This document shows positions 2,362 through 36,740 of a stretch of 64,000 bases of DNA, in pieces (the first letter of the stretch is position 1; the number at the start of each line of letters is the position of its first letter). Under the pieces are notes generated by a model. It was not told where the DNA came from, made no database searches, and worked only from the letters and a program-made list of their open reading frames with translations. Position numbers and translations under genes: made by a program. Source of the DNA: Acidimicrobiia bacterium. Its GTDB lineage: Bacteria > Actinomycetota > Acidimicrobiia > Acidimicrobiales > JANYDT01. Location: contig JANLRD010000171.1 in assembly GCA_031368215.1 (NCBI GenBank), forward strand, positions 13,933 to 77,932. Direction: 5' to 3'.

Positions 2362-4047
2362 TCACAAGGCTCGACTCGCCGACCGGGCGAGTCGATCGGC
2401 CATTGTGTCGAGCAACGCACTCGGCGCGGCAGCCAACGTCCCCAGAGCACCAAGAAAGGTCTCACCGGGAATGCGCCAGACGAGCGCTTGGGAAGTCGCA
2501 ACCACGGTCGCCGTGCGGGGACTGCGCTCGAGCAACCCGATCTCGCCGAACCAATCGCCGCTCGACATGTTGTTGATCTGACGATCGGCATCGAAGACGG
2601 CGAAGTCGCCTTCCTGGACGACGAAGACGTCGTCGGCCGGCTCGCCTTGGCGGAGCACAACCGCTCCGGCCGGCACGCGTTCGACGATCACGGACGCGGC
2701 GAGCCGTTCGAGGGCCGAGGGGGAGGCGTCAGCGAACACCCCCAGAACGCCGAGCTTCTGGACAATCGGCTGGAGTTCTCTCCGCCTGGCGTTCGTCGAA
2801 CGCGAGAGGGCAACGAGCTGAGGAATCGACACCAGACCGACAAGCATCACGAGCACGGCGATGGCGACGAGGCTTCCTCGCAGGCCGACGAGGGCGACCA
2901 GTGCGGGTGCGAGCAGCGCACCGAACAGCTTGCCGGCGTTCGATGCCGCACCCACCACGCCGAAGATCCGGCCGAGCATCTCCCGGCGGCTGAGCCGTTG
3001 CAACAGAATCAGCGAAAGCACTTCGAACCCGACGATCCCTGCACCGGTGACCACCAAGGCGACTCCGGCCACCACGGGTGACCCCAGGACAGCGAGGAGA
3101 GCGAGCGGTAGGGCCGTGCTCAGGAGGGTCGCCATCACGACCTCGGTGAGCCGCTCGGCCTCCGCGAACCTTGCCGCTGCTGGAAGCGCACACACCGCCC
3201 CCAGGCCGACTGCGCCGGTCAGCACGCCGACTCCCGTTGTTCCGAGCCCCAGCAGCTCTTCGGCGACGAGAACGTAGAGGACGAGTTCCGCTCCCCGAAC
3301 CGCATACATGACGAAGACCAGACGCATCACGACACTCAGGCCCGCATTTGCCCGCACCGCTCTCCAACCCTCACCGAGCTGATCGAGCCAGCTTGCCCGA
3401 TGGCTCTTCAGCGTCTCGGTCGACGCAACACGTGGCTCCGAGAGGCGCGGAACGAACAGGAGGACGAACGCGGAGAGCGCAAAGCAGACACCGTTGACTG
3501 CGAACGCAGTGGCCGGTGATGCGAATCGGAGCATGAACGCACCGAGGAGCGGTCCGATGAAGGTCATCAGCTGGCGGACCGAACCGACCAGCGCGCTGGC
3601 CGAAGACAGCGAGTCTTCACCAGCCACCGCGGGGAGTGCGGCCGATAGGGCCGGGCGGGCGGGTGCCGCGACGGTGTAGGTCGCGAGGACGAGCCCGAAC
3701 GCAATGGCGAGCCCTGCCCGTTGCTCCGCGGCCACAGCCAACAACAACATCAACACAGCACGCGTCAGGTCCAACGAGATCAGGAGGCGTCGGCGGTCCA
3801 TCCGATCGGCGAGAAGCCCCGCCGGTGCGCTGATCAGCGCCCGCGGGCCGAGACGCACGATCGCCGCGAGCGCGAATCCCCCCGCACCGACGCCACGATC
3901 GAACAGCAGGACGAGGAGCCCGACCCAAAAGATCCCGTCACCGATGCCCGAGACCGCTTCGGCGCAGACAACCCTGCGGACTCCAGCTGCGTGCCGACTC
4001 CGCCTCCCCCCGTTCGCAAACATGTTCCTGCGGATCCTTGGCGTCAT
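2362..4047 (-). CDS. MFS transporter with C-terminal cyclic-nucleotide-binding (CAP_ED) domain
   Basis: Multi-TM N-terminal body followed by VLRQGEPADDVFVVQEGDFAVF...GDWFGEIGLLERSPRTATVVA. The track ORF extends to 4548, but that extension overlaps the divergent gene at 4265, so the start is set at MTPRIRRNMF (4047). Confidence 0.8.
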   Translation of the reverse strand: MTPRIRRNMFANGGRRSRHAAGVRRVVCAEAVSGIGDGIFWVGLLVLLFDRGVGAGGFALAAIVRLGPRALISAPAGLLADRMDRRRLLISLDLTRAVLMLLLAVAAEQRAGLAIAFGLVLATYTVAAPARPALSAALPAVAGEDSLSSASALVGSVRQLMTFIGPLLGAFMLRFASPATAFAVNGVCFALSAFVLLFVPRLSEPRVASTETLKSHRASWLDQLGEGWRAVRANAGLSVVMRLVFVMYAVRGAELVLYVLVAEELLGLGTTGVGVLTGAVGLGAVCALPAAARFAEAERLTEVVMATLLSTALPLALLAVLGSPVVAGVALVVTGAGIVGFEVLSLILLQRLSRREMLGRIFGVVGAASNAGKLFGALLAPALVALVGLRGSLVAIAVLVMLVGLVSIPQLVALSRSTNARRRELQPIVQKLGVLGVFADASPSALERLAASVIVERVPAGAVVLRQGEPADDVFVVQEGDFAVFDADRQINNMSSGDWFGEIGLLERSPRTATVVATSQALVWRIPGETFLGALGTLAAAPSALLDTMADRLARSASRAL

Positions 4048-4264
4048 CACGGCTGTTGAAGAACGTTCGAAGGATAGCGAGCGGACAACGATCTTCTTCG
4101 AGAGATCGACTCGAAACGCACAACGACTTCTGGAGTTCATCTCTCGTTCAACAAACGTCAAGGAACGGGCGGGGAACGCTCGGTTCGCTGGTGGCGATCC
4201 GACCTGAGTGGCGGTTCCGAAGACCGCGGGCGGTTCTGGCTGACGTTGCTGTTCTCGCGAACGG

Positions 4265-5401
4265 GTGAGTACGGTCGAACACGTGATATCCGACTCATTG
4301 GACCTGACCACCGCCCAGTTTGCTGCCGGCACCGGTTGGGACATCCAACCGCAAGGTGCCTGCAAGGCGGGGGTGTGCGTTTCGCTCGAGGCCGGCGCGC
4401 CGTTCAGCGCGCATGCGGCAGCAGCTCGGCTCGGCATGGCGGTCATCCATGATGAACAGGCCGGCATCTGGGCCATCGGACCAGAGTCGTTCAACCAACA
4501 CGCGCTTACGAGTGCCGAGGCGCCAGAGCTGGTCCTCGACGACATCAACGGCCACGAGTTCCGCCTCTCCTCACTTCGAGGTCAGAAGGTGGTGCTCGTC
4601 GCCTGGTCGCCGTATTGAGGCTGTGCCTTCGACCTGCCCGGGTGGCAGGCACTGCGCAGCGAGCTTCACGCCGACGGCCTTGAGGTCGTGACGGTCTCGT
4701 TGGAGATGTCGGGCCCGGAGGCCAGCCGCTCGTACATCGACGCAGCCGCGCCTGAGCACCCTTCGCTGCTCGATCCCGGCCACACCGTCGATGCCCTCTT
4801 CGGAGTCGTGAACATTCCCAACGTTGTCTGGATCGACGAGCGGGGCATGATCGTACGCCCCGCCGAAGCAGGGTGGCCCGGAGCACGACAGGAGTTTCCG
4901 GCCAACCTGAGGTCGTCCCTGCCGAAGGTGGGCCGCGCCAGGACCGCCCCGAGACGCGCCGAAGGAACGCCTGCTGCGAACGTGCTCATCGCCGGCCAGG
5001 ATCGTACGCTCTATGCCGATGCGATCCGCGACTGGGTCGCGAAAGGTGCTGACAGCGTCTATGCGCTCACCCCCGACGAAGTAGTCGCCCGGTCACAACC
5101 GCGGTCGATCACCGAATCGGAAGGGGCTGCCCACTTCGAGCTCGCCAACCACCTGTGGGCGGCCGGGAAACGAGACCTGGCGATCGCCCACTTCAACGAG
5201 TGCCATCGTCTCCAGCCCGACAACTGGACGTACAAACGTCAGGCATGGTCGGCGGTGAGCAACGAACGCGTCGGCGGGGAGTTTGGCCGGTTCGTGCAAG
5301 GCCCGCTCGAAGGCGAGGAAGACGACTGGCCATTCGCATCGGACTTCCGCTCGGACGTCGCCATGGTCGCAGAGGGCGGCTACTACCCCGCCACCATGTA
5401 A
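4265..5401 (+). CDS. Thioredoxin-fold (TlpA/ResA-like) protein with in-frame UGA at 4616-4618: candidate selenoprotein (otherwise a split gene or pseudogene)
   Basis: Track ORFs 4265..4618 and 4688..5401 are in the same frame (4688-4265=423). The only stop between them is TGA, in ...VVLVAWSPY-U-GCAFDLPGWQALRSELHADGLEVVTVSLEM... A hairpin lies 15 nt downstream of the TGA. Confidence 0.55.
4633..4649 (+). other. SECIS-like stem-loop downstream of the in-frame UGA
   Basis: CCTGCC (4633-4638) pairs perfectly with GGCAGG (4644-4649); the loop is CGGGT, containing GGU. The stem starts 15 nt after the TGA. No folding energy was computed. Confidence 0.45.
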
Positions 5402-5515
5402 GGACGCCCGCCCGTGCTGCGAAGTTGTTCGCTCGGTCGCTCCCCGGGCGACTCGGATACCAACAACCTCACGGGTGTCTCGGCGTAACGTTCAGCGGGT
5501 CGGCCTTGACGTCGA

Positions 5516-6244
5516 ATGGGGAAGAACATGATCGAGCTACAGCGCGAAGGCCACGTGTTCGTCCTCACTATGGACGACGGCGAGAACCGTTGGAACACGA
5601 GTTTCGTGCGCGCCTTCGCCGCAGCGCTCGACGAGGTCGAGGCATCCGCAGGTCCTGCCGCGCTCGTGACGACGTCGAACAGCGAGAAGTTCTTTTCCAA
5701 CGGCCTCGACCTCGAGTGGGTGTCGTCCACCGGTGAACATCGGGGCGGTGATCGCTCGGTGTTCGGCGACGAGTTCATGTCGCTGATGGGCAGGATCATC
5801 ACGTTGCCGATCCCGACGGTCGCAGCCGTCAACGGTCACGCGTTCGGTGCGGGCTTCATGACCGCGTTGTGTCATGACGTCCGTATGATGCGTGCCGATC
5901 GCGGATTTCTCTGCGCCAACGAGATGCAGCTCGGCATGGTCATCCCCCGTCCCGAGCTTGCGCTCTTCCGCCACAAGCTCCCCGCACACGTCTTCTTCGA
6001 GACGGTGCAATTGGCGAGACGCTGGTCCGGACCCGATGCGCTTGCCGCTGGCATCGTCAGCGAAACGGCGAGCGCCGAGGAACTGCTCGGCGCCGCCCGG
6101 AAACGGGCGATGGAGTTAGCCCCGCTGGGTGCAAACCGGCGGGCGTTCGGCGCACAGAAGGAGAGCATCTTCGGTGAGAACGCGGCGCTCAACGAACCCC
6201 ATGGGGCGGCATTCATGCTCAAGTACGGAGCACGGTTCCACTAG
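5516..6244 (+). CDS. Enoyl-CoA hydratase/isomerase (crotonase) family protein
   Basis: GHVFVLTMDDGENRWN...FFSNGLDLEW...AAVNGHAFGAGFMTALCHDVRMM is the typical crotonase fold signature. Confidence 0.8.
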   Translation: MGKNMIELQREGHVFVLTMDDGENRWNTSFVRAFAAALDEVEASAGPAALVTTSNSEKFFSNGLDLEWVSSTGEHRGGDRSVFGDEFMSLMGRIITLPIPTVAAVNGHAFGAGFMTALCHDVRMMRADRGFLCANEMQLGMVIPRPELALFRHKLPAHVFFETVQLARRWSGPDALAAGIVSETASAEELLGAARKRAMELAPLGANRRAFGAQKESIFGENAALNEPHGAAFMLKYGARFH

Positions 6245-6414: not shown

Positions 6415-7458
6415 ATGTTGCTCACCGCATGGCGGGACCTGCAGTTCCGACGCCGCAGGGTGGCCATCGCCGTCCTCGGCACAGCATTGGTGCTCTCACT
6501 CAGCCTGGTGATGACGGGAATCTCGGCGTCGTTTCGCAATGAGGTCCACAACACGCTCCGCTCCTTTGGGGCAGACGGATGGCTCCGACCGGTGACGGCG
6601 AACGGCGTGTTGATAGCGAGCGGTCCCTTCGAGGCCGCAACCGCTCCGACCGCAACACAACTCGGCGTCGACCGCGCCGATCCCGTGATGTTCCGCAATA
6701 CATCGGTCGGTCGCGGCGAGAAGGATCGGATTGCCTACTTCGGCGTTGTGCGAGGCGGGCTCGGGGACCCCAACCCGACGAGGGGAGCCAGACTGGCAAA
6801 GGACGGTGACGTCGTTCTCGACACGAAACTCGACCGCAAGGTCGGCGACTCCATCACCGTCGGGGGGAAACGATTCACCGTCGTCGGTCTCGTCCGAAGT
6901 CGGAGCATCCTCGCCGGGGTCCCGATCGCGTTCATGTCGATCGCGGATGCGCAGAGCCTGGCGTTCGGCGGTCGTCCGCTGGCCAACACGGTTGCACTAC
7001 GGGGGACGCCGAAGGCGGTGCCGAGCGGTTGGGCCGTGGACACCGAACGCGACGTCGAGACGGAAATGCTCCAGCCATTGAAGGAAGCGATAAAGACGAT
7101 CGACCTGGTACGCGGGCTCTTGTGGCTCGTCGCCGCGCTGATCGTCGGTTCCGTGATGTACCTGCAGTCACTGGAGCGTTCACGGGACTTCGCGGTTCTC
7201 AAGGCCACCGGTTCGTCAGCCGCTTCGATCGGCGGAAGCCTGGCTCTGCAAGCAATCTTCCTCATGTTGGTGGCATCCGTGCTCGGCATCGGGATCTCGA
7301 TGTTGCTGGCCCCGCAGTTCCCTATGAACGTCGACATACCACCGGCTTCCTTCGCCCTGCTTCCCCTGATTGCCATAGCAATCGGCCTCGTTGCGTCCGT
7401 CACCGGACTACGACGCTCTTTGAAGATCGAACCCGCCTTTGCCTTCCGGGGGGCGTGA
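6415..7458 (+). CDS. ABC transporter permease, FtsX/MacB-like (Rv2563-like)
   Basis: N-terminal TM helix, extracytoplasmic domain, and C-terminal FtsX-type 3-TM bundle (LLWLVAALIVGSVMYLQSLERSRDFAVLKATG...). Confidence 0.8.
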   Translation: MLLTAWRDLQFRRRRVAIAVLGTALVLSLSLVMTGISASFRNEVHNTLRSFGADGWLRPVTANGVLIASGPFEAATAPTATQLGVDRADPVMFRNTSVGRGEKDRIAYFGVVRGGLGDPNPTRGARLAKDGDVVLDTKLDRKVGDSITVGGKRFTVVGLVRSRSILAGVPIAFMSIADAQSLAFGGRPLANTVALRGTPKAVPSGWAVDTERDVETEMLQPLKEAIKTIDLVRGLLWLVAALIVGSVMYLQSLERSRDFAVLKATGSSAASIGGSLALQAIFLMLVASVLGIGISMLLAPQFPMNVDIPPASFALLPLIAIAIGLVASVTGLRRSLKIEPAFAFRGA

Positions 7459-7459
7459 G

Positions 7460-8449
7460 ATGAACGGCGCTTCTGCATCAGAGGGCCACGACGGTCTGCA
7501 GGTGAACGATCTTGTCGTCGAGTACCGGCGCGGCTCCCAGGCGATACGCCCGATCGACGGGCTCAGCTTCAATGCGGGGCCGGGCTCGATCACGTTGCTG
7601 ATCGGCCCGTCGGGCTGCGGAAAGACCAGCGTCCTTTCCTGTCTCGGTGCGATGCTCACACCGACTTCCGGTTCGATCCGCCTACGAGACGTTGACGTGG
7701 TTGGTGTTACGGGCAGGGGGCTCACGAACTATCGGCGCAACGATGTCGGTATCGTCTTCCAGGCATTCAACCTCCTGCCGTCACTCACGGCCGTGGAGAA
7801 CGTCCGGGTGGTCATGAGCGCGGCCGGAGTGAAGCGGCGCCGGGCTGACGAGCGAGCCACCGAGATCTTGACAACACTCGGACTCGGCGGACGTCTGCAT
7901 CATCGTCCCGATGACCTGTCCGGCGGCCAGCAGCAGCGGGTTGCAATCGCCCGTGCCCTGGCGCTCGATCCGAAGTTGCTCCTGGCCGACGAGCCGACCG
8001 CGCATCTCGATCACGGATCCGTGGCGAGCGTGCTGGATGTGTATCGCCGCCTCGCCGATGATGGTCGCATCGTCGTTGTTTCCACGCACGACGACCGAAT
8101 GCTTCCGGTCGCCACCAATGTCGTCGAGTTGGCGCCCCGTTCGCACACGACCGCGCAACCTGGCGTCGTCTCAGTGGCGAAGGGCGAGACGCTCTTCGCT
8201 CAGGGCGACCGTGGCGAGCTCGTCTACGTGATCGAGTCAGGGACGTTCGACGTTGTTCGGCGAGAACCCGACGGCGAGACGGTTGTGGTGGCTGACGTCG
8301 GTGCTGGCGACCACGTCGGCGAGATGGCCCCACTGTTCTCGCTTCCCCGGTCTGCCAGCGTCATCGCAACGAGCGACGCGGTCGTCGAGGGAATGCCGAT
8401 CGAGCAGTTTCGACGTCGCTTCGGCGTGCGGTCGCTCGCCGGTCGGTGA
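7460..8449 (+). CDS. ABC transporter ATP-binding protein with C-terminal cNMP-binding domain (Rv2564/GlnQ-like)
   Basis: Walker [10 protein letters not shown], signature [15 protein letters not shown], Walker B LLLADEPT. The C-terminal CAP_ED domain reads [20 protein letters not shown]...[17 protein letters not shown]. The track start at 7439 overlaps the permease, so the ATG at 7460, just after its stop, is preferred. Confidence 0.85.
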
Positions 8450-8452
8450 ATC

Positions 8453-10642
8453 GTGCAGGCGACCGCTGAAGACCTGCGATCGATCGCGTTGTTCCGTGGG
8501 CTCGATGACTCCATCCTCGCGGAACTGGCCGAAGCGATGTCGACGAGGCATCTCCGAACGGGCGACTGGCTTGCTCCACCCGACGACTCGTTGCCGGGGC
8601 TCAGCGTGGTTCTTGCCGGCGCGCTCGATGTGTTTGCGACGCGTGTCGAGGGCTCGGTTGCACAAGATGTGATCTCGATCGGCGGTTCTTGTGGTTCGTG
8701 GACACTCCTCGGTGGTGGAACGCGTTTGGGAGAGATCCGCGCCACCTTTGATGTGCCGACGACGACGCTCGGTGAACTGCGGAGTGACTCTTTCGAGACG
8801 ATCGCCAACCGGCATCCCGGCGTTCGTGATGTCGTGCTTCGTAACGCCACCATGGAGTTTCGCGACTTCGAGCTCACGCGTGCCGTCCGCAGTGGTTGGG
8901 GCATCGTCGACCCCGAAGCCATCGCCTCTTTGGCGAAGGTTGGCGTCATCCGCGACGTCGCGGCGGGTGAGGTCCTCGTCCGGAAGGGCGACCCGGCGAA
9001 GTCTGCCTATCTCGTGTTATCGGGTAGCTTCCAGGTCACGGGACACTCCGATGACACGTCGGCCGCGAAGGAGCCGACGCTCCCCATGCTGGGCACCGGT
9101 CAGCTCGTCGGAGAGCGGGCCCTGCTGAGAGACGGCGTCCGCAGTGCAACGCTTACTGCGATGCGGGCGTCGCGCGTCGCTGAGTTCGAGACTGGGGCGT
9201 TCCTCGAGATGTGCCGCGCCCATCCGGAGGTGCTGTTGCGGACCGTCGGCGAGTTCATGCGCAGACTGGACTCGAGAGCGCGACCAGAGGCGCCAACGGG
9301 TCATCGGATCGCGCTGGTGGGCGACGGCGTCGCAGACGTGAGCGCATTCGCGAAGCGACTGGCCGCGTCGTTTCCTGAACCGATAGCGGTCATCGACGCG
9401 CAAGAAGCCAGCGCCGCGGTCGGATTGTGCGACGACCTCTCCGACGCTGCCGCGGAGCTGAACCTTCGGCGTCTCGGCGCGTGGCTCGATCGTCGTACCG
9501 AGCAGTCCCCGTGGCTCCTCCTCGTCGCCGATCCCCGGGACCGCCGCTGGACCGCAGCGTGCCTATCCCATGGTGATCATGTCGTCGCGCTGGTCGAGAA
9601 GTCGGGCACGATTCCGAATCGCCATCCGGTGTGGCCGGCTGACGCGCCGACTCTGCAACCGACAACGCTCGTGCTTCTGCATCCGACGTCGACCCGTCTT
9701 CCGAGCGGTACGGCTGGCGTGCTTCGACAATTCCCGGCAAACGCCCACCTGCATGTGCGCATCGACCGCGACGATGATGTCGGCCGAGTCGCTCGCATGC
9801 TCGCCGGCGTTCCCTACTGTCTCGTGCTCTCCGGCGGCGGGGCCCGCGGCTTCGCCCACCTCGGTGCCGTTCAGGCCATGCGCGAGCTCGGCATTCCGTG
9901 CGACGTCGTCGGTGGGACGAGCATCGGCGCCGTCATGGCCGCCTACCAGGGCATGGACCTGAGCATCGAGGAGCAAATCAGCCAGACGGAGGCTGACTTC
10001 AAGGGACTGATGGATTACACGTTGCCGGTGGTCTCACTTCTCAAGGGACGGCGCACCAGTGAACGGATTCAGCGTCACGCGGGCGACCACACCATCGAGG
10101 ACCTCTGGATCCCGTACTTCTGCATCTCGACGAACCTCTCGACCAACAACATGAAGATCCACGATCGCGGATCGATCGCCACCGCCGTTCGGGCGAGCCT
10201 CGCGCTGCCCGGCGTGTTTCCGCCCGTGCACGATGGAGAGCACTTCCTCATCGACGGCGGAGTGCTCAACAACTTCCCTCTCGACGTGATGCGCGCTCGT
10301 AATCCGTTCGGGAAGGTGATCGCAGTCGATGTCGCCGCCAACGTGTTGCTGGAGGCTGTCGGGAACTTCGGCCTCCAGCTCTCGGGTTGGCGCGCTGCAG
10401 TGTCCATGCTGCGACGAAAACCGCTCGCACCGAGCATCGCCACGACACTCGTGCGGACCTCCATGATCGGCTCGGCACGAGATCACGATCGCTACCTCCA
10501 GCTGCGCTTCGCCGATGTCCATATCGAACTCGTCCTCAAGGAAACCGGCCTGCTCGACTTCGGAGGCGTCCGCCCCATTGCCGAGTACGGCTACCGAGGA
10601 TCGAGGCCGCAACTCGCTTCGTGGTGGGAGCAGAGACACTAA
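8453..10642 (+). CDS. Patatin-like phospholipase (NTE family) with two N-terminal cNMP-binding domains (Rv2565-like)
   Basis: The second CAP_ED domain has GQLVGERALLRDGVRSATLTA. Patatin motifs are SGGGARGFAHLG (oxyanion hole), GTSIGA (GxSxG) and DGGVLNNFP (catalytic Asp). GTG start 4 nt after the upstream stop. Confidence 0.85.
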   Translation: MQATAEDLRSIALFRGLDDSILAELAEAMSTRHLRTGDWLAPPDDSLPGLSVVLAGALDVFATRVEGSVAQDVISIGGSCGSWTLLGGGTRLGEIRATFDVPTTTLGELRSDSFETIANRHPGVRDVVLRNATMEFRDFELTRAVRSGWGIVDPEAIASLAKVGVIRDVAAGEVLVRKGDPAKSAYLVLSGSFQVTGHSDDTSAAKEPTLPMLGTGQLVGERALLRDGVRSATLTAMRASRVAEFETGAFLEMCRAHPEVLLRTVGEFMRRLDSRARPEAPTGHRIALVGDGVADVSAFAKRLAASFPEPIAVIDAQEASAAVGLCDDLSDAAAELNLRRLGAWLDRRTEQSPWLLLVADPRDRRWTAACLSHGDHVVALVEKSGTIPNRHPVWPADAPTLQPTTLVLLHPTSTRLPSGTAGVLRQFPANAHLHVRIDRDDDVGRVARMLAGVPYCLVLSGGGARGFAHLGAVQAMRELGIPCDVVGGTSIGAVMAAYQGMDLSIEEQISQTEADFKGLMDYTLPVVSLLKGRRTSERIQRHAGDHTIEDLWIPYFCISTNLSTNNMKIHDRGSIATAVRASLALPGVFPPVHDGEHFLIDGGVLNNFPLDVMRARNPFGKVIAVDVAANVLLEAVGNFGLQLSGWRAAVSMLRRKPLAPSIATTLVRTSMIGSARDHDRYLQLRFADVHIELVLKETGLLDFGGVRPIAEYGYRGSRPQLASWWEQRH

Positions 10643-14227: not shown

Positions 14228-15253
14228 ATGAGTCCATCGCCCGGCAACGACCGCTGGTTCACGAACGAGCACCCGGCGCTGCTTCGGTGCTGGCACCCTG
14301 TCGCCCGAAGCGCCGACGTCGGCGAATCGCCCGTGGCAGTGGAACTCCTCGGAGAGCATTGGTGCGTGGTTCGGCTGAACGGACTGCTGACCGCTCTGCC
14401 GGACCGCTGCCCCCACCGCTTCTCGCCACTGTCGGCCGGCCGTGTCGTCGAGGGAACCCTCGAATGCGCTTACCACGGGTATCGCTTCGGACCCGATGGG
14501 CACTGTGTCGAGATCCCGGCGCAGTCCCCATCGCTTCCGATCCCGCCGCGTGCGCATTGTCAGCCGGCCCACGGCGTGTGCGATCACCTCGGCCTCGTGT
14601 GGGTCGCCATCGAAGCGCCCGTCGTCGATCTCCCCGAGGTTCCCGAGCATCACGACCCCACCTTCGTGCACTGCCCGCTTCCCCCGCTCGACTGGCACGC
14701 CAGCGCCGCCCAGATGACCGACAACTTCCTCGACCAGGGTCACTTCCCGTTCCTCCACCTCGCAACGTTCGGCGCAGTGGACGATCGCGTCGTTCCCGAC
14801 TACGAACTGGAGCGACGCGGTCTGGGGTTCACGGTTCGCCACACCCACAAGACCAAAGCACTGGCCGACTCCCACCCGGGCGCAGCGCAAACCCGCATCA
14901 TCGAGCGCGAAGACCTCTTCGTCTACACAGCGCCCCACCACGTGTATCTCCGGATCAACTACAAGTCGGAGAACGCGGTGCTCACGATCAGCTTCTGCCA
15001 CCAACCGGTGAACGAAACGACCACGCGACTCTTCTGCACCGACTACCGCAACGACATCGCCGACACGGCGAACGAACGGCAGCAGACTGCCGACTTCCAG
15101 ATGGCCGTGGCGGCGGAGGACAGGGCCCTCCTCGAGCGTGTTCACCGAAAGGGCGTTCCGCTCGACGTGACGGCCGAAGTTCACACGAAGGCGGACCGCA
15201 TCACCTTGGAGATGCGCCGAATCCTTCATGAACTCGTCACGCTCCCGACCTGA
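14228..15253 (+). CDS. Rieske [2Fe-2S] non-haem iron oxygenase (VanA/Ndm/PaO-like)
   Basis: Rieske ligands CPHRF-x16-CAYHGY; mononuclear-iron motif DNFLDQGHFPFLH. Confidence 0.85.
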   Translation: MSPSPGNDRWFTNEHPALLRCWHPVARSADVGESPVAVELLGEHWCVVRLNGLLTALPDRCPHRFSPLSAGRVVEGTLECAYHGYRFGPDGHCVEIPAQSPSLPIPPRAHCQPAHGVCDHLGLVWVAIEAPVVDLPEVPEHHDPTFVHCPLPPLDWHASAAQMTDNFLDQGHFPFLHLATFGAVDDRVVPDYELERRGLGFTVRHTHKTKALADSHPGAAQTRIIEREDLFVYTAPHHVYLRINYKSENAVLTISFCHQPVNETTTRLFCTDYRNDIADTANERQQTADFQMAVAAEDRALLERVHRKGVPLDVTAEVHTKADRITLEMRRILHELVTLPT

Positions 15254-20696: not shown

Positions 20697-22484
20697 TTAC
20701 TCGACGTTCGCCGAGGTCCCGTACCGGACACCTCGCTCGATCAGCCAGCGCCGGTAGGCGAGGCTCGTCTGGTCGGCGCGTTGGTGCACCTCACGCGACG
20801 GCGAGAGGGGGAGTCGCACAGGACGCTGCGACTCGACGATGTCAACGTCCTGCTCGAAGATCAGCGCGCCGAACGCATTGAAGGCGGCGAGGTCGGCATC
20901 GGGGTTATAGGAAGTGGTGATCATCCACGCCCGGTTCGAACCCTCGGTCTCCGGGCTCACCGCGAGCAAAATCTCGAAACCGTCCCGCGCTCCCCCGTCG
21001 GCCTCACTTGGGATCTTCACGAGCCGCGCGGCGTAGGGATGCGACACACCGTAGGTGTACGTAACAATGCCGCCCTCGCCCCCGGATGGACCGGGTTGCG
21101 GCTGGAAGAACACGCAGTTCGTGGCCAACAACTCGCCGTCGACGACACGGACGGCGTAGTCGGACACCTCAGTTTCGGGAACCCGGCCGAGATACCCCTC
21201 ATGGACGAAGGGGAAGTGCGCCATGTCGAGAAAGTTCTCCACGATGCGAGGGCCTGACGAGCGCACCCGCTTCGACGCACAGATGGTCGTGAGGCCCGGG
21301 TGGGCTTCGAAGGCGTCGTAAAAGGGGAGATTGCGGGGCTCGTCGCCGATGCACATCCACCACAGACCGAACGCCTCCCGGACCCGGACGGCGGGCAAAC
21401 CGGCAGCAGCAGGAGGGATCCCGTCCGGATGCGCCGGCTGGTGGACGCAGCGTCCATCGGCTCCGAACTGCCAGCCGTGATAGCTGCACCGCAGCCGATC
21501 TCCGTCGAATGACCCGAGACTCAGCTGGGCTCCTCGGTGCGGACAGGTGTCCCGGGTGACGAGAACACCGCCATCGTTTCCGCACAACAGCACGTAACGC
21601 TCGTCGAGCAGCGTGAACGGATACATCGATCCGGGCGTCACTTCCGCGGCGGTCGCGACCGGGAACCATTCATTCACGATCGGGTCGGGCGCCACCGAGT
21701 GCTCGGTGTTCTGCGTTGCTTCCGCCGGTCGGGAGATGCTCACCGGACGGCCACCGGAACCCGATGCGACCACGGTTGTTCCTCTCGAGATGCTGACCGA
21801 GGTCCCTTCCGCGCCCGACGACGCCGTCGTCGTCGATTTCGCGGGGATGTCCGGTGCAGCCGGATAGATACCCGGCATGACGGTGAATCCGGGGGTCCGC
21901 TTGAAACGGTCGGTCCATCGGCGAAGCGCCGGGTAGTCGACCAGGCTGATGCCACCCTGCTCGGCGAGCATCACGTCCGGGAAGAGCGCGAGATCGGCAA
22001 TGGTCGGATGGGGGGCTCTGGCAACCCAGTCGCGGCTCTCCTGTTCCTGGAACCACAGGTGCTCGTCGAGGACGCGGAACAACCGATGAGCCCCGGAGCG
22101 CACCGCGTCGATGTCGAACGGGTAGCCGAGCGTGTCGTGAAGCCGGGCCGCGGACGCGGTGTTCGTCGTGCCCTCGGCGAAGAGCATCCACGACGCCACC
22201 TCGCCCAGGACCTCCGGGTCATGCGTCGGGTACCACTGCCCGCTCGCGTCGTACTTCGCCGACAGGTACACGAGGATCGCGTGGGCATCGCGCAGGATGT
22301 AACCGTCGTCGTCGATCACCGGGATGTGTCCGAGCGGGTTGATCTCGGCGAAGGCTTCGCCCTTGTGTTCCCAACCGGGGAAGAAATCGATCAGGACCGA
22401 CTCGAAGGACACGCCGAGGATGTTCATCAGCAGCCGCTGCTTGTAGCAGTTGACCGAGAGTTCGTAGTCGTAGAGCTTGATCAT
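20697..22484 (-). CDS. Glutathione S-transferase domain fused to a complete Rieske non-haem iron oxygenase
   Basis: The GST part runs MIKLYDYELSVNCYKQRLLMN...INPLGHIPVIDDDGYILRDAHAILVYL... A Ser/Thr/Gly linker follows, then Rieske CPHRG-x16-CSYHGW and the iron motif ENFLDMAHFPFVH. It is a single ORF with no internal stop. Start at 22484 with GAGGTGA 7 nt upstream. Confidence 0.75.
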   Translation of the reverse strand: MIKLYDYELSVNCYKQRLLMNILGVSFESVLIDFFPGWEHKGEAFAEINPLGHIPVIDDDGYILRDAHAILVYLSAKYDASGQWYPTHDPEVLGEVASWMLFAEGTTNTASAARLHDTLGYPFDIDAVRSGAHRLFRVLDEHLWFQEQESRDWVARAPHPTIADLALFPDVMLAEQGGISLVDYPALRRWTDRFKRTPGFTVMPGIYPAAPDIPAKSTTTASSGAEGTSVSISRGTTVVASGSGGRPVSISRPAEATQNTEHSVAPDPIVNEWFPVATAAEVTPGSMYPFTLLDERYVLLCGNDGGVLVTRDTCPHRGAQLSLGSFDGDRLRCSYHGWQFGADGRCVHQPAHPDGIPPAAAGLPAVRVREAFGLWWMCIGDEPRNLPFYDAFEAHPGLTTICASKRVRSSGPRIVENFLDMAHFPFVHEGYLGRVPETEVSDYAVRVVDGELLATNCVFFQPQPGPSGGEGGIVTYTYGVSHPYAARLVKIPSEADGGARDGFEILLAVSPETEGSNRAWMITTSYNPDADLAAFNAFGALIFEQDVDIVESQRPVRLPLSPSREVHQRADQTSLAYRRWLIERGVRYGTSANVE

Positions 22485-22501
22485 CTCGTCACCTCGGTAC
22501 A

Positions 22502-24304
22502 CTAAATGTCGAGTACGAGTCGAGGGGTTCGCGACCGCGACACACAGATGGTCATGCGGTTTCCTGCGGCTCGTTCGGAATCGTTGAGGTACACGTCTTG
22601 ATGGTCGGGTTCGCCGGCCAGGACCGCTACGACGCAGGTACCGCACGCGCCCTGCTCACATGAGGAGGGCACGGCGACCCCGTTGTTCCGGAGCACCTCC
22701 ATGATCGACGAACCCGGCGGAACGGCCAGGGTGAGGGCCGAGCGGGCGAGCTCTACCTCGAATGCGGTCGACATGTCGAGTGGCGTGGTGTTCTTGAAGT
22801 ACTCGAAATGGACCGCCTGATCGGGCCAGCCCGCCGCTGCAGCGGTGGCGCGCGCGGCGTCGAGCATCGGGCCGGGTCCGCAGATGTAGACATTCTCGCC
22901 CTCGCCCGGACTTTCGAGCAGAGTTCGCAGTGCTTCGCCGGTGGCCGCCGGTGACAATCCGAGATGGAACGTCACCCGATCGCCGAACGCCTCCAGGACC
23001 TCGGCAAACGCAACGTGATCCGGCGACTGGGCGAAGTAGTGCAACGCGAAGTCGAGCGAGCTCGCCTGCAGGGCCTGCGCCATGGACAGCAGAGGTGTCA
23101 CGCCGATCCCTCCGGCGATCAGCACCGTTCTGAACGAGTCGCGCCGCAAAGGGAAGTTGTTGCGCGGTTGGGAGATCGCGAGGACGTCGCCTTCGCGCAC
23201 CAGGTCATGCAGGCACGACGATCCGCCACGCGAAGCGGCTTCGAGCTTGACGCCGATGACGTAGCGGCCCTGCTCACCCGGTCCGTTGACGAGTGAGTAC
23301 TGGCGGATCAAACCGTTCGGCAGGTGCACATCGATGTGGGCCCCCGGCTGGAAGGTCGGGAGTTGGCCCTCGACGGGATCGAACTCGAACGAGACGATGC
23401 CCTCGCCCACATCTCGCTTGCGGGCCACGACCACCCGCACGAGTCCGCCGACTCGCCCCTCGACGGCGGTCTCCGGCATTGTCGAGAGTTCGAGCGACAC
23501 CTGGCCGATCCTTGCCACCATCGGCTCCGGTGTCGGTCGCTTCTTGGCCTCGGCCTCGCGGGCATCACGGAGCCGGTTGATCCTGGATGCGTGATAGCGG
23601 AGGACCGCCAGTTCCGAGCCCGGCTCGGGTGACCGGCTCAGCACACTGCGGATCACCGACCTGGCCGAGTCGACCGGCTGCACGAAGAACACGATTGTGG
23701 ACTTCGCCTCTGGAGCTTCGCCGAGCTGGATCGAGGTGAGTTCGATCCAACCGTCGCCCCGGTTCGTGACCGAGACCAGCGCGTCGGCGTGTTCAGCCGT
23801 CCCGTGCCCGGCGTCGGGGACCTCCGTCGACGGGACGAAGTGGTATGAAGCCAACGCGTCGAGCACGACGTGCGGCTCGACGTTCGCCGGCACGGAACGC
23901 AGAGCGAACGGATCGCCTGTGTCGAGACTCGCGATCACCGGGACATCACCTTGCGGTGCCTCCCCCGTCCACACGAACCCGTAGCGCTCGACCATCGGGA
24001 ACGTGACGTTGCAGATCGTGCGCGCCGGCGCGTCTGCGGGATGGGCGGGGATGTAGGTGCAGCCGGCCGATCGGTTGGCGTAGCGCCACCCGTGATACTG
24101 GCAGCGCAGTTCCCGTCCTTCGTTGTGGCCGAGCGTGAGGCGGACGCCGCGGTGGAGGCAGCGGTTCTCCCACACGTTCACGTACCCATCGTCGGCACGC
24201 CAGAGGGCGAGTTCACGGCCGAGGAGCAGACCGTGGAAGACGTGTCGCGGCGGCAGGTCGTCGCTCCGGGCCACCGGATACCAGTTGGCCGTCAGATCTT
24301 CCAT
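22502..24304 (-). CDS. Oxygenase reductase with extra N-terminal Rieske domain (Rieske + FNR-like flavin/NAD module + plant-type [2Fe-2S] ferredoxin; NdmD-like architecture)
   Basis: CLHRG-x16-CQYHGW; RQYSL and LIAGGIGVTPLLSM; C-terminal CEQGACGTC...ICVSR. Confidence 0.8.
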   Translation of the reverse strand: MEDLTANWYPVARSDDLPPRHVFHGLLLGRELALWRADDGYVNVWENRCLHRGVRLTLGHNEGRELRCQYHGWRYANRSAGCTYIPAHPADAPARTICNVTFPMVERYGFVWTGEAPQGDVPVIASLDTGDPFALRSVPANVEPHVVLDALASYHFVPSTEVPDAGHGTAEHADALVSVTNRGDGWIELTSIQLGEAPEAKSTIVFFVQPVDSARSVIRSVLSRSPEPGSELAVLRYHASRINRLRDAREAEAKKRPTPEPMVARIGQVSLELSTMPETAVEGRVGGLVRVVVARKRDVGEGIVSFEFDPVEGQLPTFQPGAHIDVHLPNGLIRQYSLVNGPGEQGRYVIGVKLEAASRGGSSCLHDLVREGDVLAISQPRNNFPLRRDSFRTVLIAGGIGVTPLLSMAQALQASSLDFALHYFAQSPDHVAFAEVLEAFGDRVTFHLGLSPAATGEALRTLLESPGEGENVYICGPGPMLDAARATAAAAGWPDQAVHFEYFKNTTPLDMSTAFEVELARSALTLAVPPGSSIMEVLRNNGVAVPSSCEQGACGTCVVAVLAGEPDHQDVYLNDSERAAGNRMTICVSRSRTPRLVLDI

Positions 24305-24334
24305 GGCGGTTTCGCTCTCGACGCTTCGTGGTGA

Positions 24335-25249
24335 CTACGCGGCAGGAATGACGCCGTAGGTCAGACCCTTGTCGGAGAGCCAGCGCCGGTAGTGGATCGC
24401 GCTCTTGTCGGCGCGGATCGGCGTTTCGGCACGTGGGTCGAGGGGGAGCCGCTTCGGATACTGGCTTTCGAGGATCGTCTTGTCCTGCCCGAAGATCAGC
24501 TGCTGGAAATGCCGAAGGGTGTTGTCGGTGCTCACGTCATCGACCATGGCGAGGAAGTTGTGGGCCCGGATGCGTTCCTCGGTCATCGGCTGGTTGAACA
24601 GCGCGATCACGTCCATGCGGCTCGGGTCGGCGTGCACCGACTTGTAGAGCATCACGCAGTACGGGTGGGGCACCCGATACGTGTAGTTGGTGACCTGGCC
24701 ACCGGCGGCGCTCGCCGCGGCAACCGGTTGGTAGAACTTGCAACCCGTTGCCAGCACCTGGGCCTCGGTCGTCTCGACGTTGTACTCGACCACTTCGGTG
24801 CGCGGCTCGATGCCGAGAAGTCCGGTGTGCACGTACGGGAAGTGGCCCATGTCGAGGAAATTCTCCACCGCACGCGGTGCGGAGACGCTGACCATCAGGC
24901 TCCCGCCGTTGAGGATCCGACGGTCGGCTTCGTCGCACTCCGGGATGTCGAAGATCTCGTGGTCCGGATTGCCGAGCGTGGTCCAGAGATACCCGAACTT
25001 GACTCGTGTCGGGAGTGGATCGGTCACCGTCGTGGGGTCCATCTCCGCACCTGCGGCCGAGCCGACCAGACCGGAGGGATCGGCCTCACTCGCCCAGACG
25101 AATGGTCGGCCAACGCTGTCGCGGGTGTAGCTGATCGCCTGGCCGAGGAGCAACGTGCGGTGAAGCCGGAACGGGACAACTTCATCAAGCGCGCTCAGCG
25201 GGTGCCATTCGTGGAGGACCACAGGGTCGACGAGTACAGGCGAACACAC
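24335..25249 (-). CDS. Rieske-oxygenase catalytic-domain protein lacking the Rieske cluster ligands (NdmC-like architecture)
   Basis: Iron motif [13 protein letters not shown] and C-terminal [13 protein letters not shown]...IHYRRWL. There is no CxH...CxxH in the N-terminal 100 aa. GTG start. Confidence 0.75.
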
Positions 25250-31950: not shown

Positions 31951-32542
31951 CGAGCAGCTCCGCCTGGGGTGCCACGACGGTTGACCCGGCTGCGATCGAA
32001 CGCATCAGCAGAGCGTTCGCACCAACCCGGCAGCCATCCCCGAGAGTTATCGGCCCGAACACTTTCGCTCCGTCGAAGAGCGTGCAGTTCGAACCGATCA
32101 CCGGGAAGCCATCACGATCGGGGTCTCGAAAGCCGACGGTACCCACCGACACGCTCTTGAAGACCTTGACGTTTTCTCCGATGACCACGCCTGCTCCGAT
32201 CGCGATGCCCATTGGATGGGCCACGACGAACCCGGGACCAATCTGTGCCTGCGGGTAGATCTCCGCGCTGAACAGCACTACTCCGGTGAGTAACAAGAGT
32301 CGAGCGACGGGGAACCAGCCGCGCAAGTGTGCGGCGTGTGCGGCTCGGAAGGTCACGACAGAAAGGAATCCGGCCTGAGTAAGAACGTCGAATGTGCGGC
32401 GCAGCCCTCGATTCTTGACGTGGTCGATTCCGATTAGGGCCTCAAAATCGGCGCGCAGGAGTTTGCGAACGGGACTGTCGTGGCGCAATCCTGCGTACTT
32501 CCGATCAGACCCGTCACCGCTGCTTTTCTCGCTTGTTGTCAC
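31943..32542 (-). CDS. Hexapeptide-repeat O-acetyltransferase (serine acetyltransferase/EpsC-like)
   Basis: LbH repeats: HPMGIAIGAGVVIGENVKVFKSVSVG...VIGSNCTLFDGAKVFGPITLGDGCRVGANALL. Confidence 0.75.
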   Translation of the reverse strand: MTTSEKSSGDGSDRKYAGLRHDSPVRKLLRADFEALIGIDHVKNRGLRRTFDVLTQAGFLSVVTFRAAHAAHLRGWFPVARLLLLTGVVLFSAEIYPQAQIGPGFVVAHPMGIAIGAGVVIGENVKVFKSVSVGTVGFRDPDRDGFPVIGSNCTLFDGAKVFGPITLGDGCRVGANALLMRSIAAGSTVVAPQAELLGA

Positions 32543-33678
32543 GGTTTCATTCTCCTACTCGGCTCCGTCAGCGTTTCCTCGAACGCGCGCAGCGCAGCTT
32601 GGCCCACGCGCGCCGCAGAGAACGACGCAGCCTGCAATGGTCCGGCCGCACGTAGATCGGCACACAGCGATGGGTCACGCACAATCCGGTCCATTCCGTT
32701 CGTGATGGCGAGCGTGTCGAGCGGATTAACGAACAGCGCGGCGTCACCAAGGACTTCGGGGAGCGACGTGCGGTCGGACGCCAGCACCGGGGTACCCAAG
32801 GACATCGCCTCAAGTGGCGGTAGTCCGAATCCCTCAAAGAGCGACGGGTACGCCAGGAGAACCGCTTCACGCATCAACCAGAGGCGGACGGCTTCGTCGA
32901 CCCTGCCCACATTCAGCACGCTGCCTACCGGGGCCGACGAGACCTTTTGCTGCTCTTCGCCGCCCTGCCACCAACGAGCGCCGGCCAGCACAAGTGTCAA
33001 CTCGCCCATCCCGTCACGCGCGCGCAGATCGAGGAACGCATCGATCAACCGGCCGACGTTCTTGCGAGGATGAAGGTTCCCGAGATACAGGACGAAGGGG
33101 GCGCGTACTCCCACTTCTTCAGCCCACCTCCGTGCGTGTCCTTCCGTGGCGTCGTCGAGCGCCACCGGATCGGCGACGCGGTTCGGGACGACCTTGACAC
33201 GCGCCGGGTCGAGCCCGTAGGACGCAATGAGGTCCGATCGCGAGTATTCGCTGGGCGTCAGCACCACACCGGCCCCGCGGGCCTGTCGCGGGACCAACAA
33301 GTTCAGCCGGCGACGCGCCCCGGATGGGTACATCTCGGGGTGGTGCAGAAACGAGAGGTCACCAATGACGACAGCCGTCGGGATGGACGAACGAACGACC
33401 ACGTGCGTCACCGTCACTACGAGGTCGGCCCGTTGCGACCGCAACGCAAGAGGCAGGTCGACCGCAAAATGTCGCAACCCCCGCCTCCGGGGCACGTCGA
33501 TGAGTGGGAAGTCCGCCCTGTCCCTGACAGCGCAGGGCACGTTGGTGCCGGGCGCCGCCAAGATCGGGAACTCGTGGGACTGGTTTTTGATCGCGAGGCC
33601 TTCGAGCAGACCGGTCATCCACGTCTCATCGCCGCCAATTCCGGACTCGAGGGGCGCCCCGTCGATCAGGACCCTCAC
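32539..33678 (-). CDS. Glycosyltransferase family 4 (GT-B)
   Basis: EGFGLPPLEAMSLGTPVLASDRTSLPEV (the EX7E region). GTG start in a GTGA overlap with the upstream stop. Confidence 0.8.
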   Translation of the reverse strand: MRVLIDGAPLESGIGGDETWMTGLLEGLAIKNQSHEFPILAAPGTNVPCAVRDRADFPLIDVPRRRGLRHFAVDLPLALRSQRADLVVTVTHVVVRSSIPTAVVIGDLSFLHHPEMYPSGARRRLNLLVPRQARGAGVVLTPSEYSRSDLIASYGLDPARVKVVPNRVADPVALDDATEGHARRWAEEVGVRAPFVLYLGNLHPRKNVGRLIDAFLDLRARDGMGELTLVLAGARWWQGGEEQQKVSSAPVGSVLNVGRVDEAVRLWLMREAVLLAYPSLFEGFGLPPLEAMSLGTPVLASDRTSLPEVLGDAALFVNPLDTLAITNGMDRIVRDPSLCADLRAAGPLQAASFSAARVGQAALRAFEETLTEPSRRMKP

Positions 33679-34763
33679 GGGAAGCAGCCGGCCCAACGTT
33701 GCATGGACTCGCCCAACTCTCGGTAGATCTTGCGGTAGTGCGCCGGGCGGGGGCTCCTCCCGGCCTCGACGAGGAATTCCTCGCTGAAGTCGGCAAACAT
33801 TCGGTTGTATTCACCGACCGCGACACGTTCCACAGCAGCGTCCACCGCCGCAAAAAAGCCTTCGGCCATCAGATGCATCCAGTGCTCAAGCATCACGACA
33901 CGTTCGAGCTTCGTCTGCTTCGTGTGCTCAACAATCGGACGTCCGAAGGCGAACAGATCACCTCGCAGATCCATGAGTTTCTTCACCACGTAGCCGCCCC
34001 AAATGTCGTCGTGACGACTGAGTTGCCAGCCATCGACCCAGAGGTCGGGAAGGAAAAAGTACGCGGGAGTGATGTCGGCTGCAAACGACGTGTTCATCCC
34101 GCACACCGGGATGTTACCGAGAGCGATGCGGTTCTCATGGCCGTAGAGACCCGGGTCGTACGGGGGCTCTTTCGGCAGCTTGTCCACGCCGTTGAGGTCC
34201 AAAATGTTGTCCCACACCCCCATATTGATCTTTACCGGGCCCGACGCTGTGGTCTCCTCGACACGCGAGCGTTCCTCGTTGCGGAATTCGTAGGGATATC
34301 CGCGTGCATAGAAGCCTGGGGCCGTTATGGAGTTGACCCACTCCCCTCTCAGCGCCGGCGCGTTCGTAACTGTCGCAAGCGCCTCAAGGTGTGTCTCCAG
34401 CCAGCCGGGCCGCACACGGCAGTCGTAATCGAGCGCCACGATGACGTCATAGCCTTCCCGGTACGCAAGCACGTGCCCAAAGTTGCGGCACGCAGCGCTC
34501 TTGTGAGGGATGGCATCCCAGTTCTCACCCATGATGTCGCGCTGGGCGGAATAGTCGTAATACACGACGTTGCCACGGGGCGCCGGACTAAGATTTCCGT
34601 CGCTGTCATCGGGGACGATGATCGTAACGTCTTCAGAGAGTTCTTCGAAGATCGTCCAATCGGGATCGTTCGGCATCGGAATCACAACAGCGACTCGGCG
34701 CTGATCGACCCGGCCATCGTTTGCCAACAGCGACGAGGTCGAGGCGGCGGCGGACATATTCAT
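33675..34763 (-). CDS. Reversibly-glycosylated-polypeptide / UDP-arabinopyranose-mutase-like protein (GT75-like)
   Basis: Collinear matches to my recollection of plant RGP1: SAACRNFG (dSACRCFGY), ALDYDC (TIDDDC), ARGYPYEFRNE (VRGYPFSLREG), IPVCGMNTSFAADITPAYFF ([21 protein letters not shown]), RHDDIWGGYVVK (RYDDMWAGWCIK). Confidence 0.6.
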   Translation of the reverse strand: MNMSAAASTSSLLANDGRVDQRRVAVVIPMPNDPDWTIFEELSEDVTIIVPDDSDGNLSPAPRGNVVYYDYSAQRDIMGENWDAIPHKSAACRNFGHVLAYREGYDVIVALDYDCRVRPGWLETHLEALATVTNAPALRGEWVNSITAPGFYARGYPYEFRNEERSRVEETTASGPVKINMGVWDNILDLNGVDKLPKEPPYDPGLYGHENRIALGNIPVCGMNTSFAADITPAYFFLPDLWVDGWQLSRHDDIWGGYVVKKLMDLRGDLFAFGRPIVEHTKQTKLERVVMLEHWMHLMAEGFFAAVDAAVERVAVGEYNRMFADFSEEFLVEAGRSPRPAHYRKIYRELGESMQRWAGCFP

Positions 34764-34795
34764 TTCTGGTCTCCTGGATTCGACAAAGGGAAGGA

Positions 34796-35734
34796 TCAGG
34801 CCGAGCGACGGATCGCGCGTAAATCGGCAAAGTTCGCAAGGATGTATTCCTCAAGCGCGTCGCGCCACGGGCGCATCTGGTTCAGGCCGAGTAGCTCGAG
34901 CGCGCGGTTCGTCATGCTTTCCGACCTTGGCCGGTTCGAGGAATAGTCCGCGGCAAAGAACTCCGAATCCACTTCGACCAGCTCGACCTCGTCGAGCAAA
35001 CCCAGCACATCCAGAATGTGGAGCGCGACGTCGTAACGGCTACCGTCGCCTTCGCACGCCATGTGGTAGCGCCCATAGTTCGTCGTCTCGACGAGGCCGA
35101 GCAAGGTTTTCGCAAAGTCCTTCGTGTACGTAGGAGTCCCGAGCTTGTCACCGACGGCGTAGATCGTGGGTCGACCCTCACGGACCTGATCGAGCATCTT
35201 GGCGACGAACTTGTGGTCCTTACCCGGCCCGCCACCGACCATCCATCCGGCGCGAACGATGAAGTGCTGCGGCTGCAATTGCTCGACAAAATGTTCGCCT
35301 GCCAGTTTCGTCGCGCCGTAGGTGTTGATCGGGTTCGGTCGATCCCGTTCGTCATAAGGGCCGTCCTTGACCCCGTCGAACACCCCCGCCGTGCTTATGT
35401 ACACAAGCGGAATTCCTGCTTCCGCACATGCGAGCGCTACGTGCCGGGTCGCTGTCGCATTCGTCAAGTAGGCCGCAGCAGCATCCGCGTCGGAAATCTC
35501 GAGATCCGTCTCGGCCGCGAGGTGCGCGACCAGCGACGGTCTTGCGGTAACTATCGCATCCTTAACAGCCTCCTCGTCACGTACGTCGAGATACTCCAAG
35601 CGTGGGCCACGCCGCCCCCACACCGGGGGTGAGATGTTGATGTCGGTTGCTACGACATTGTGGCCGGCGTCGACGAAAGCGGGCACCAAGGCACTGCCGA
35701 GCATGCCGGCCGTTCCGGTCATTAGGACATTCAC
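34796..35734 (-). CDS. NAD(P)-dependent sugar-nucleotide reductase/epimerase (RmlD-like SDR)
   Basis: LMTGTAGMLGSAL Rossmann motif and YGATK (YxxxK). GTG start preceded by GGAG, in a GTGA overlap with the upstream stop. Confidence 0.75.
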   Translation of the reverse strand: MNVLMTGTAGMLGSALVPAFVDAGHNVVATDINISPPVWGRRGPRLEYLDVRDEEAVKDAIVTARPSLVAHLAAETDLEISDADAAAAYLTNATATRHVALACAEAGIPLVYISTAGVFDGVKDGPYDERDRPNPINTYGATKLAGEHFVEQLQPQHFIVRAGWMVGGGPGKDHKFVAKMLDQVREGRPTIYAVGDKLGTPTYTKDFAKTLLGLVETTNYGRYHMACEGDGSRYDVALHILDVLGLLDEVELVEVDSEFFAADYSSNRPRSESMTNRALELLGLNQMRPWRDALEEYILANFADLRAIRRSA

Positions 35735-36738: not shown

Positions 36739-36740
36739 CG
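36721..36740. repeat. 10-bp tandem duplication (ccagtcaacg x2) at the Wzy-PD40 / GT2 gene junction
   Basis: Read directly from the sequence. One copy supplies the VDW codons of the upstream gene. The other supplies its TGA stop and, in another frame, the VDW codons of the GT2 ORF. Confidence 0.8.

Follow-up and report, generated by a model that had tools for sequence, protein, structure and literature searches.

The 64,000-nucleotide stretch of DNA analysed here, referred to below as the window, covers positions 13,933 to 77,932 of contig JANLRD010000171.1 of an Acidimicrobiia bacterium (GenBank assembly GCA_031368215.1). Its region from 4283 (or 4265) to 5401 on the + strand very probably constitutes one selenoprotein gene of the NCBIfam family NF041054, in which the UGA at 4616-4618 is decoded as selenocysteine (Sec). 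Gene unity, family membership, a Sec/cysteine (Cys) pair, a conserved structured RNA downstream of the UGA and purifying selection on both sides of it are directly supported.

Reading frame, gene boundaries and selective constraint

The open reading frames (ORFs) 4265..4618 and 4688..5401 lie in one shared frame of the + strand. As had been described in the original prediction, the sole interruption between them is the TGA at 4616-4618: translation of 4265-5401 (379 codons) shows this one internal stop and no other. The translation around the TGA reads ...LRGQKVVLVAWSPY*GCAFDLPGWQALRSEL..., with the peptide VVLVAWSPY 5' of the stop, and the motif W-S-P-Y-UGA-G-C occupies 4604-4624. The gene comprises the following features:

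4283..5401, + strand: single selenoprotein coding sequence (CDS), 372 amino acids (aa), one frame with a single internal TGA, end-to-end match to NF041054, stop codon TAA at 5399-5401
4265..5401, + strand: alternative version with the upstream start GTG 4265, giving 378 aa
4616..4618, + strand: in-frame UGA, very probably read as Sec; residue 112 counted from start 4283 and 118 from start 4265; a stop column in the orthologues
4622..4624, + strand: invariant Cys codon of U-G-C (81/81 sequences), presumed resolving Cys; one-residue deletion relative to the second Cys of CxxC

Orthologues were obtained from a scan of one genome per species, which returned at least 267 relatives; the best 80 loci were kept and, together with the window, give the 81 sequences compared throughout. 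The single gene of about 378 aa proposed in the original prediction stands as a gene, and only its length needs correction. GTG 4283 rather than 4265 is probably the start codon and 372 aa the length of the protein, because the N-termini of the orthologues (M-I-[LVI]-[DE]-[ST]-L) begin at the codon aligned with GTG 4283, which is an ATG in two of them (L002 and L004). The NF041054 match begins at residue 8 of the 4265 version, corresponding to profile position 2.

Both halves of the gene are under purifying selection, with a ratio of nonsynonymous to synonymous substitution rates (dN/dS) of about 0.1. Against the closest orthologue (L001, 93% identical to the window gene at the protein level) the ratio amounts to 0.10 upstream and 0.09 downstream of the TGA, and the values against the orthologues L002 and L003 are similar. 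An in-frame UGA with conserved coding on both sides, the pattern sought in a selenoprotein gene, is therefore present here, with the stop found in 80/80 orthologues and the constraint extending upstream and downstream of it.

Among the 120 best database relatives (P0001-P0120), 117 are truncated C-terminal ORFs of 231-259 aa. The earlier statement that ORF callers split this gene describes them correctly, and because of these fragments the family must be regarded as systematically mis-called in metagenome gene catalogues. Taken at face value, such entries would favour two independent genes or a pseudogene. In that case the TGA would genuinely end translation, or have arisen by nonsense mutation or through an error of assembly, and 4688..5401 would be translated separately. 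In public gene sets the C-terminal part has an entry of its own, with 231-258 aa, and no Sec machinery was seen in the 64-kb window. This explanation is nevertheless highly improbable. The same stop column is present in 80/80 orthologues from many lineages, the N-terminal fragments in the databases end one residue before the Sec position and the starts of the C-terminal fragments vary, dN/dS is low for both halves, and full-length Cys forms of the protein exist. Moreover, the split would cut a single thioredoxin fold after strand beta-1 and before helix alpha-1, and neither half would fold alone.

Upstream, a divergent gene on the - strand (2362-4047, MFS plus cyclic-nucleotide-binding domain) most likely starts near 4047, leaving an intergenic region of about 235 nt. 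A promoter and terminator scan of 3900-5600 found nothing.

The hairpin downstream of the UGA

The perfect 6-bp stem with loop CGGGU, noticed originally in the window alone, is present at 4633-4649, and comparison adds to it conservation with covariation and with suppressed synonymous change.

4633..4649, + strand: hairpin of the selenocysteine insertion sequence (SECIS) type; stem CCTGCC (4633-4638) / GGCAGG (4644-4649), loop CGGGT (CGGGU in RNA) at 4639-4643; RNAalifold, covariation

Between the TGA and the stem lie 14 nt, the loop begins 20 nt after the TGA, and the CCTGCC/GGCAGG inverted repeat is unique in the window. The RNA analysis used an alignment of the stop codon plus 48 nt from the 81 sequences, on which RNAalifold returned exactly the 6-bp helix 4633-4649 and nothing else. 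Standard pairs occupy 462/462 cells of the stem. The outer C-G pair is replaced by U-A in 5 sequences and by U-G in 7, the second C-G pair by U-A in 1 and by U-G in 2. The observed pairing or covariation score was reached by none of 500 shuffles, and slid controls collapse. The loop occurs in the variants CGGGU, AGGUU, AGGGU and CGUGU, with an invariant G at loop position 2.

Since the hairpin encodes the conserved peptide D-L-P-G-W-Q, its synonymous sites were tested. The entropy of synonymous codons is 0.23 bits at the hairpin Leu codon (mean 1.55 and minimum 0.61 at 41 other conserved six-fold codons), 0.54 bits at the Pro codon (mean 1.47 and minimum 0.72 at 64 other four-fold codons) and 0.10 bits at the Gln codon (two-fold codon mean 0.65). 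For each of these three codons, every other codon of the same degeneracy class in the gene has a higher synonymous entropy, which means that the RNA is under constraint beyond what the protein requires. A stem-loop 3' of the UGA with a G in its loop and with conservation beyond coding, as is looked for in bacterial selenoprotein genes, is thus evident from the comparison of sequences, where the shared stop column and the pairing go far beyond what chance would give, and not significant in the single sequence.

The stop codon in orthologues and Sec/Cys exchange

A stop codon stands exactly at the W-x-P-Y-*-G-C position in each of the 80 orthologous loci, as TGA in 75 and as TAG in 5. These best 80 loci belong mostly to Acidimicrobiia or Ilumatobacter metagenome-assembled genomes (MAGs), besides Blastococcus, Geodermatophilus and Pseudonocardia kunmingensis. 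The close subfamily has a wide distribution among aerobic Acidimicrobiia of soil and sea and among Geodermatophilaceae, and the view that selenoproteins are uncommon in Actinobacteria, on which the original prediction had drawn, is overstated for a family present in at least 267 species-representative genomes, mostly of Acidimicrobiia.

The TAG codons are found in two Blastococcus loci (L015:3343-3345, L018:3343-3345), two Geodermatophilus loci (L025:3337-3339, L044:3334-3336) and one Actinomycetota MAG (L028:3343-3345), and the hairpin is unchanged in all five. Geodermatophilaceae have been described as carrying a tRNA-Sec with anticodon CUA together with selenoprotein genes with matching UAG (Santesmasses et al. 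2017, PMC5330540, citing Mukai et al. 2016), and the account of B. saxobsidens in that paper names formate dehydrogenase, UGSC-motif proteins and an 'AhpC' selenoprotein. The five orthologues resemble these Sec-UAG selenoproteins in having a TAG Sec site, with the same hairpin, whereas the window gene uses the standard UGA. A codon that follows the anticodon of tRNA-Sec is hard to account for except by Sec. The MAG locus suggests a further UAG-Sec lineage, or an unclassified member of the Geodermatophilaceae.

Read-through without selenium would require suppression by a near-cognate tRNA (Trp or Cys) or reassignment of UGA (code 4 or 25), the hairpin merely stimulating the process. In other systems, read-through can be promoted by RNA structure located 3' of a stop codon, and incorporation of selenium in the window protein is itself deduced by sequence comparison. 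Such read-through is most unlikely all the same, given that TGA is the commonest ordinary stop among the coding-like ORFs of the window, that the codon becomes TAG, with the hairpin unchanged, in the very family reported to have tRNA-Sec(CUA) (PMC5330540), that four orthologous loci have sel genes and tRNA-Sec next to the gene, and that the position is that of the redox-active Cys, a classic Sec/Cys pair. Genome-wide reassignment of UGA in particular was rejected because of the frequency of TGA as an ordinary stop in the window, and also in view of the TAG variants at the site.

When homologues are aligned at the UGA, a check suggested along with the original prediction, the orthologues show their stop and the Cys forms a Cys. 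Three Cys forms (P0006, P0015 and P0054) are full-length, share 55-57% identity and read WAPY-C-GC; few relatives with 55% identity or more are of this kind. Among 25 more distant full-length homologues (34-52% identity), the aligned position shows W-x-x-[WY]-C-x-C in about 20. The Cys form P0015 (L083:6001-7077) has TGC at the Sec position and an intact hairpin (TCTGCCCGGGTGGCAGG), which is read here as a fossil SECIS left by a recent switch from Sec to Cys; recoding of UGC to Sec is a conceivable alternative.

A further explanation is that the window holds a relic selenoprotein gene in a genome that has lost the Sec trait, of which only a truncated N-terminal product is made. It would agree with the lack of Sec machinery within the 64-kb window, but it is very improbable: the hairpin is perfect, the region after the TGA is intact and, compared with the 93%-identical closest orthologue, under the same constraint as the region before it, and lineages that give up Sec show the change to TGC, not decay.

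Several variants were recorded among the relatives. The distant full-length relatives P0121-P0265 form a broader family of W-A-x-W-C-x-C (CxC) proteins that share the three-domain layout, and signal peptides are present in some of these CxC relatives (P0134, P0146, P0147). P0129 is without the first Cys (WASWSEC) and P0218 without the second (WAGWCES). One orthologous locus contains a tandem paralogue (L016:4129-5196) of 355 aa with WASW-U-GC and the same hairpin, starting directly after the first copy.

Family membership and protein architecture

The read-through protein, with U replaced by C, scores 437.7 bits against NCBIfam NF041054.1 (cutoff 300, E 3.6e-131). The match runs end to end, with residues 8-376 covering profile positions 2-351 of 354. 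The entry is an equivalog model, WAxxUGC_long, named 'ResA-like WAxxUGC motif-containing protein'; the family name that the original prediction had given ('ResA-like WAxxUGC motif protein') accordingly belongs to a real entry, and one that the window protein matches. The three-part architecture of the 'long' family is present, with an N-terminal domain, a thioredoxin (Trx) fold and a helical C-terminal domain, and so is the motif W-A-x-x-U-G-C with its U derived from an in-frame stop, here with Ser for Ala. W, P, Y, U, G and C of the motif are invariant in the 81 sequences. The second motif position is Ala in 74/81 and Ser (WSPY) in the window, in the closest orthologues L001-L005 and in L071.

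4361..4378, + strand: conserved pair C-x4-C (GACKAGVCV); lies in the N-terminal domain (about 80 residues); C33 in 80/81 and C38 in 81/81 sequences
4514..4855, + strand: thioredoxin-fold (ResA/TlpA-like) catalytic domain; Pfam AhpC-TSA and Redoxin at residues 84-197, PDB matches, AlphaFold2 model
5126..5224, + strand: TPR-like helical repeat in the all-helical C-terminal domain; Pfam TPR_2, TPR_14 and TPR_1 at residues 288-323, below gathering scores; TPR designs in the PDB match

Numbered from 4265, the invariant or near-invariant Cys and Sec residues are C33, C38, U118 and C120. The best matches in the PDB by sequence are 3kcm, ResA (4nmu) and TlpA (1jfu). In the HMMER alignment, ...VLVAWAPYCG-CSFDLP... 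is placed opposite ...VIVNFWATWCPPCREEIP... of 3kcm (WATWCPPC), and ResA 4nmu aligns likewise. The Sec position thereby falls on the N-terminal, nucleophilic Cys of the ResA/TlpA motif W-A-x-W-C-x-x-C, which bears out the earlier placement of the UGA at the redox Cys of a TlpA/ResA-type strand-loop-helix: in 3kcm and ResA the aligned residue is the attacking Cys of CxxC.

The AlphaFold2 model was made for the Cys homologue P0015, not for the window protein. Its mean predicted local distance difference test score (pLDDT) is 71.9, with about 90 in the Trx core, 53-69 in the N-terminal domain, values below 50 in the linker 199-225, and 71-91 per 10-residue block (mean about 82) in the helices 227-315. 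By fold, the P0015 model matches ResA, TlpA, CcmG, DsbE and StoA (TMt about 0.75).

The window protein shares with ResA, TlpA, CcmG (DsbE) and StoA the thioredoxin fold, the active-site strand-loop-helix and the cis-Pro loop (NIPN), and structures of these proteins are its best PDB matches by sequence and fold (4nmu, 1st9, 1jfu, 2b1k, 3erw). It differs from them in four respects. Where ResA and TlpA have CxxC, the window protein has U-G-C (CxC type), one residue shorter, and needs a gap against C-P-P-C or C-K-P-C. ResA and TlpA are extracytoplasmic, whereas the window protein has no signal peptide, transmembrane segment or hydrophobic N-terminus (maximum 19-residue Kyte-Doolittle mean 1.09), and is therefore predicted to be cytoplasmic and soluble. 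ResA and TlpA are without the additional N-terminal CxxxxC domain and the C-terminal TPR-like domain. Finally, the NCBIfam models of these proteins match the central domain only and stay far below their cutoffs (ResA 49 vs 170, TlpA 31.2 vs 230, StoA 31.1 vs 210, DsbE 15.7 vs 123).

Pfam AhpC/TSA (PF00578) scores 45.1 against a gathering threshold of 26, and the position of the peroxiredoxin-motif Thr is Ala in 74/81 sequences and Ser in the window. Assignment to the peroxiredoxins was considered and set aside as unlikely, as the Thr of P-x-x-x-T-x-x-C varies and the solved structures nearest to the protein are those of ResA and TlpA. Selenoproteins with a related fold have been tabulated for Deltaproteobacteria, e.g. 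Geobacter and Syntrophus, as 'Prx-like thiol:disulfide oxidoreductase' and 'thiol:disulfide interchange protein' (Zhang et al. 2006, PMC1794560); the three-domain actinobacterial family of the window is set beside these Trx-fold families here by their descriptions in that table.

Sec machinery and the weight of the evidence

Genes for Sec synthesis or insertion and/or tRNA-Sec(UCA) are located within 3 kb of the orthologue in 4 of the 80 loci, each time in a different arrangement. L012 (510-2784) has selB and selA beside the orthologue, L014 (521-2796) has tRNA-Sec(UCA), selD and selA, and L047 (4421-6783) has selA and selB. L058 (2-2911) has selD, selB and tRNA-Sec(UCA), the tRNA gene ending 90 nt upstream of the start of the orthologue. 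The selD genes in these loci are Cys forms (GAGCGCK). Over the 81 loci, no neighbouring gene is conserved beyond close relatives (at most 11/81), and the gene neighbourhood gives no operon-based clue to function. Pfam annotation of about 45 genes of the window revealed no Sec-related, formate dehydrogenase or other candidate selenoprotein gene.

A number of observations weigh against decoding of the UGA as Sec in the window gene. A tblastn search of the 64-kb window with SelA, SelB and SelD of E. coli yielded no homologue (best E 0.2), and ARAGORN detected no tRNA in the window. In the single sequence the hairpin is weak evidence that alone would not have convinced: the fold of a 71-nt segment is no better than chance (z = -0.08 vs shuffles), and perfect stems of 6 bp or more occur at a SECIS-like distance after 4-7% of all TGA triplets in the window, whose GC content is 64%. 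The minimal SECIS of E. coli fdhF is a 17-nt stem-loop located 11 nt after the UGA and with a bulged U, whereas the hairpin of the window has a 14-nt spacer and is without the bulged U. Rfam searches of the whole window at gathering threshold, and of 4500-4800 with E up to 10, gave chance hits only and nothing matching the hairpin. A literature search found no publication or experimental study of the WAxxUGC family, and the catalytic mechanism outlined below is an extrapolation from ResA/TlpA in spite of the motif being one residue shorter. Decoding as Sec is retained as very probable with these points taken into account.

Proposed mechanism

During translation the UGA at 4616-4618 would be decoded as Sec. 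The 17-nt hairpin, 14 nt downstream of it, would serve as a bacterial SECIS: SelB, loaded with Sec-tRNA(Sec), would bind it and bring Sec to the ribosome, where release factor 2 would otherwise act. In the folded protein, Sec is expected at the N-terminus of helix alpha-1 of the Trx fold, the usual place of the attacking Cys of CxxC. There it is expected to make the nucleophilic attack in a redox cycle of the thiol-disulfide (or peroxide/selenenyl) type, on a substrate disulfide or an oxidant, and Cys114, two residues on in U-G-C, would resolve the intermediate through a selenenylsulfide. The N-terminal CxxxxC domain and the C-terminal TPR-like domain probably recruit the substrate or the reductant.

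As a conjecture that we consider rather unlikely, the close subfamily would be almost obligately dependent on Sec, in view of the stop at the site in 80/80 loci and the rarity of Cys forms, and, with its wide spread and its repeated adjacency to selA, selB, selC or selD, could be a main reason for which these lineages keep the Sec trait. The U-G-C selenenylsulfide (CxC ring) might perform chemistry beyond that of CxxC thioredoxins and peroxiredoxins, e.g. isomerase-like or very high-potential redox reactions, aided by the N-terminal CxxxxC domain.

Other genes of the window

Cyclic-nucleotide-binding domains occur in three genes near the selenoprotein gene, fused to an MFS transporter (2362-4047, - strand), to an ABC ATPase (7439-8449, + strand) and to a patatin/NTE-like phospholipase (8453-10642, + strand). 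An FtsX permease gene (6415-7458) adjoins the ABC ATPase gene. The ABC ATPase and patatin ORFs lie in one frame, and nothing but the TGA at 8447-8449 and one further codon stands between them ahead of GTG 8453; this junction (8447-8455) is probably an ordinary gene adjacency, with no sign of read-through.

Rieske/VanA-type oxygenase genes are located at 14228-15253, 20697-25249 and 62358-63695. Within the second of these regions, the gene at 20697-22646 has an N-terminal GST domain, and 22502-24304 is a fusion of Rieske, DmmA-like and 2Fe-2S ferredoxin parts. A large cluster for polysaccharide biosynthesis extends over 32539-46480 on the - strand and comprises GT2 and GT4 glycosyltransferases, an RmlD-like reductase, a flippase, a Wzz-like protein and a sugar transferase. 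It includes a gene (36725-40438) for a 1237-aa protein that combines an O-antigen-ligase (Wzy_C) domain with PD40 beta-propeller repeats.

Annotation and significance

NCBI protein-family models serve to name proteins in the annotation of bacterial and archaeal genomes at NCBI. A curated NCBI model already covers the family together with its motif and its character as a selenoprotein. The locus is an ordinary member of that family; the original prediction was a correct call, useful for annotation, and not a discovery. The locus should be annotated as one CDS with a Sec exception, not as two ORFs. For the source organism, the presence of the gene would indicate a Sec-decoding trait. The family itself is a clear natural case of a SECIS lying within the coding sequence of a conserved peptide (D-L-P-G-W-Q), of a Sec codon that differs between lineages, mostly UGA and in a few UAG, while the SECIS stays the same, and of a putative reversion from Sec to Cys that leaves a fossil SECIS behind.

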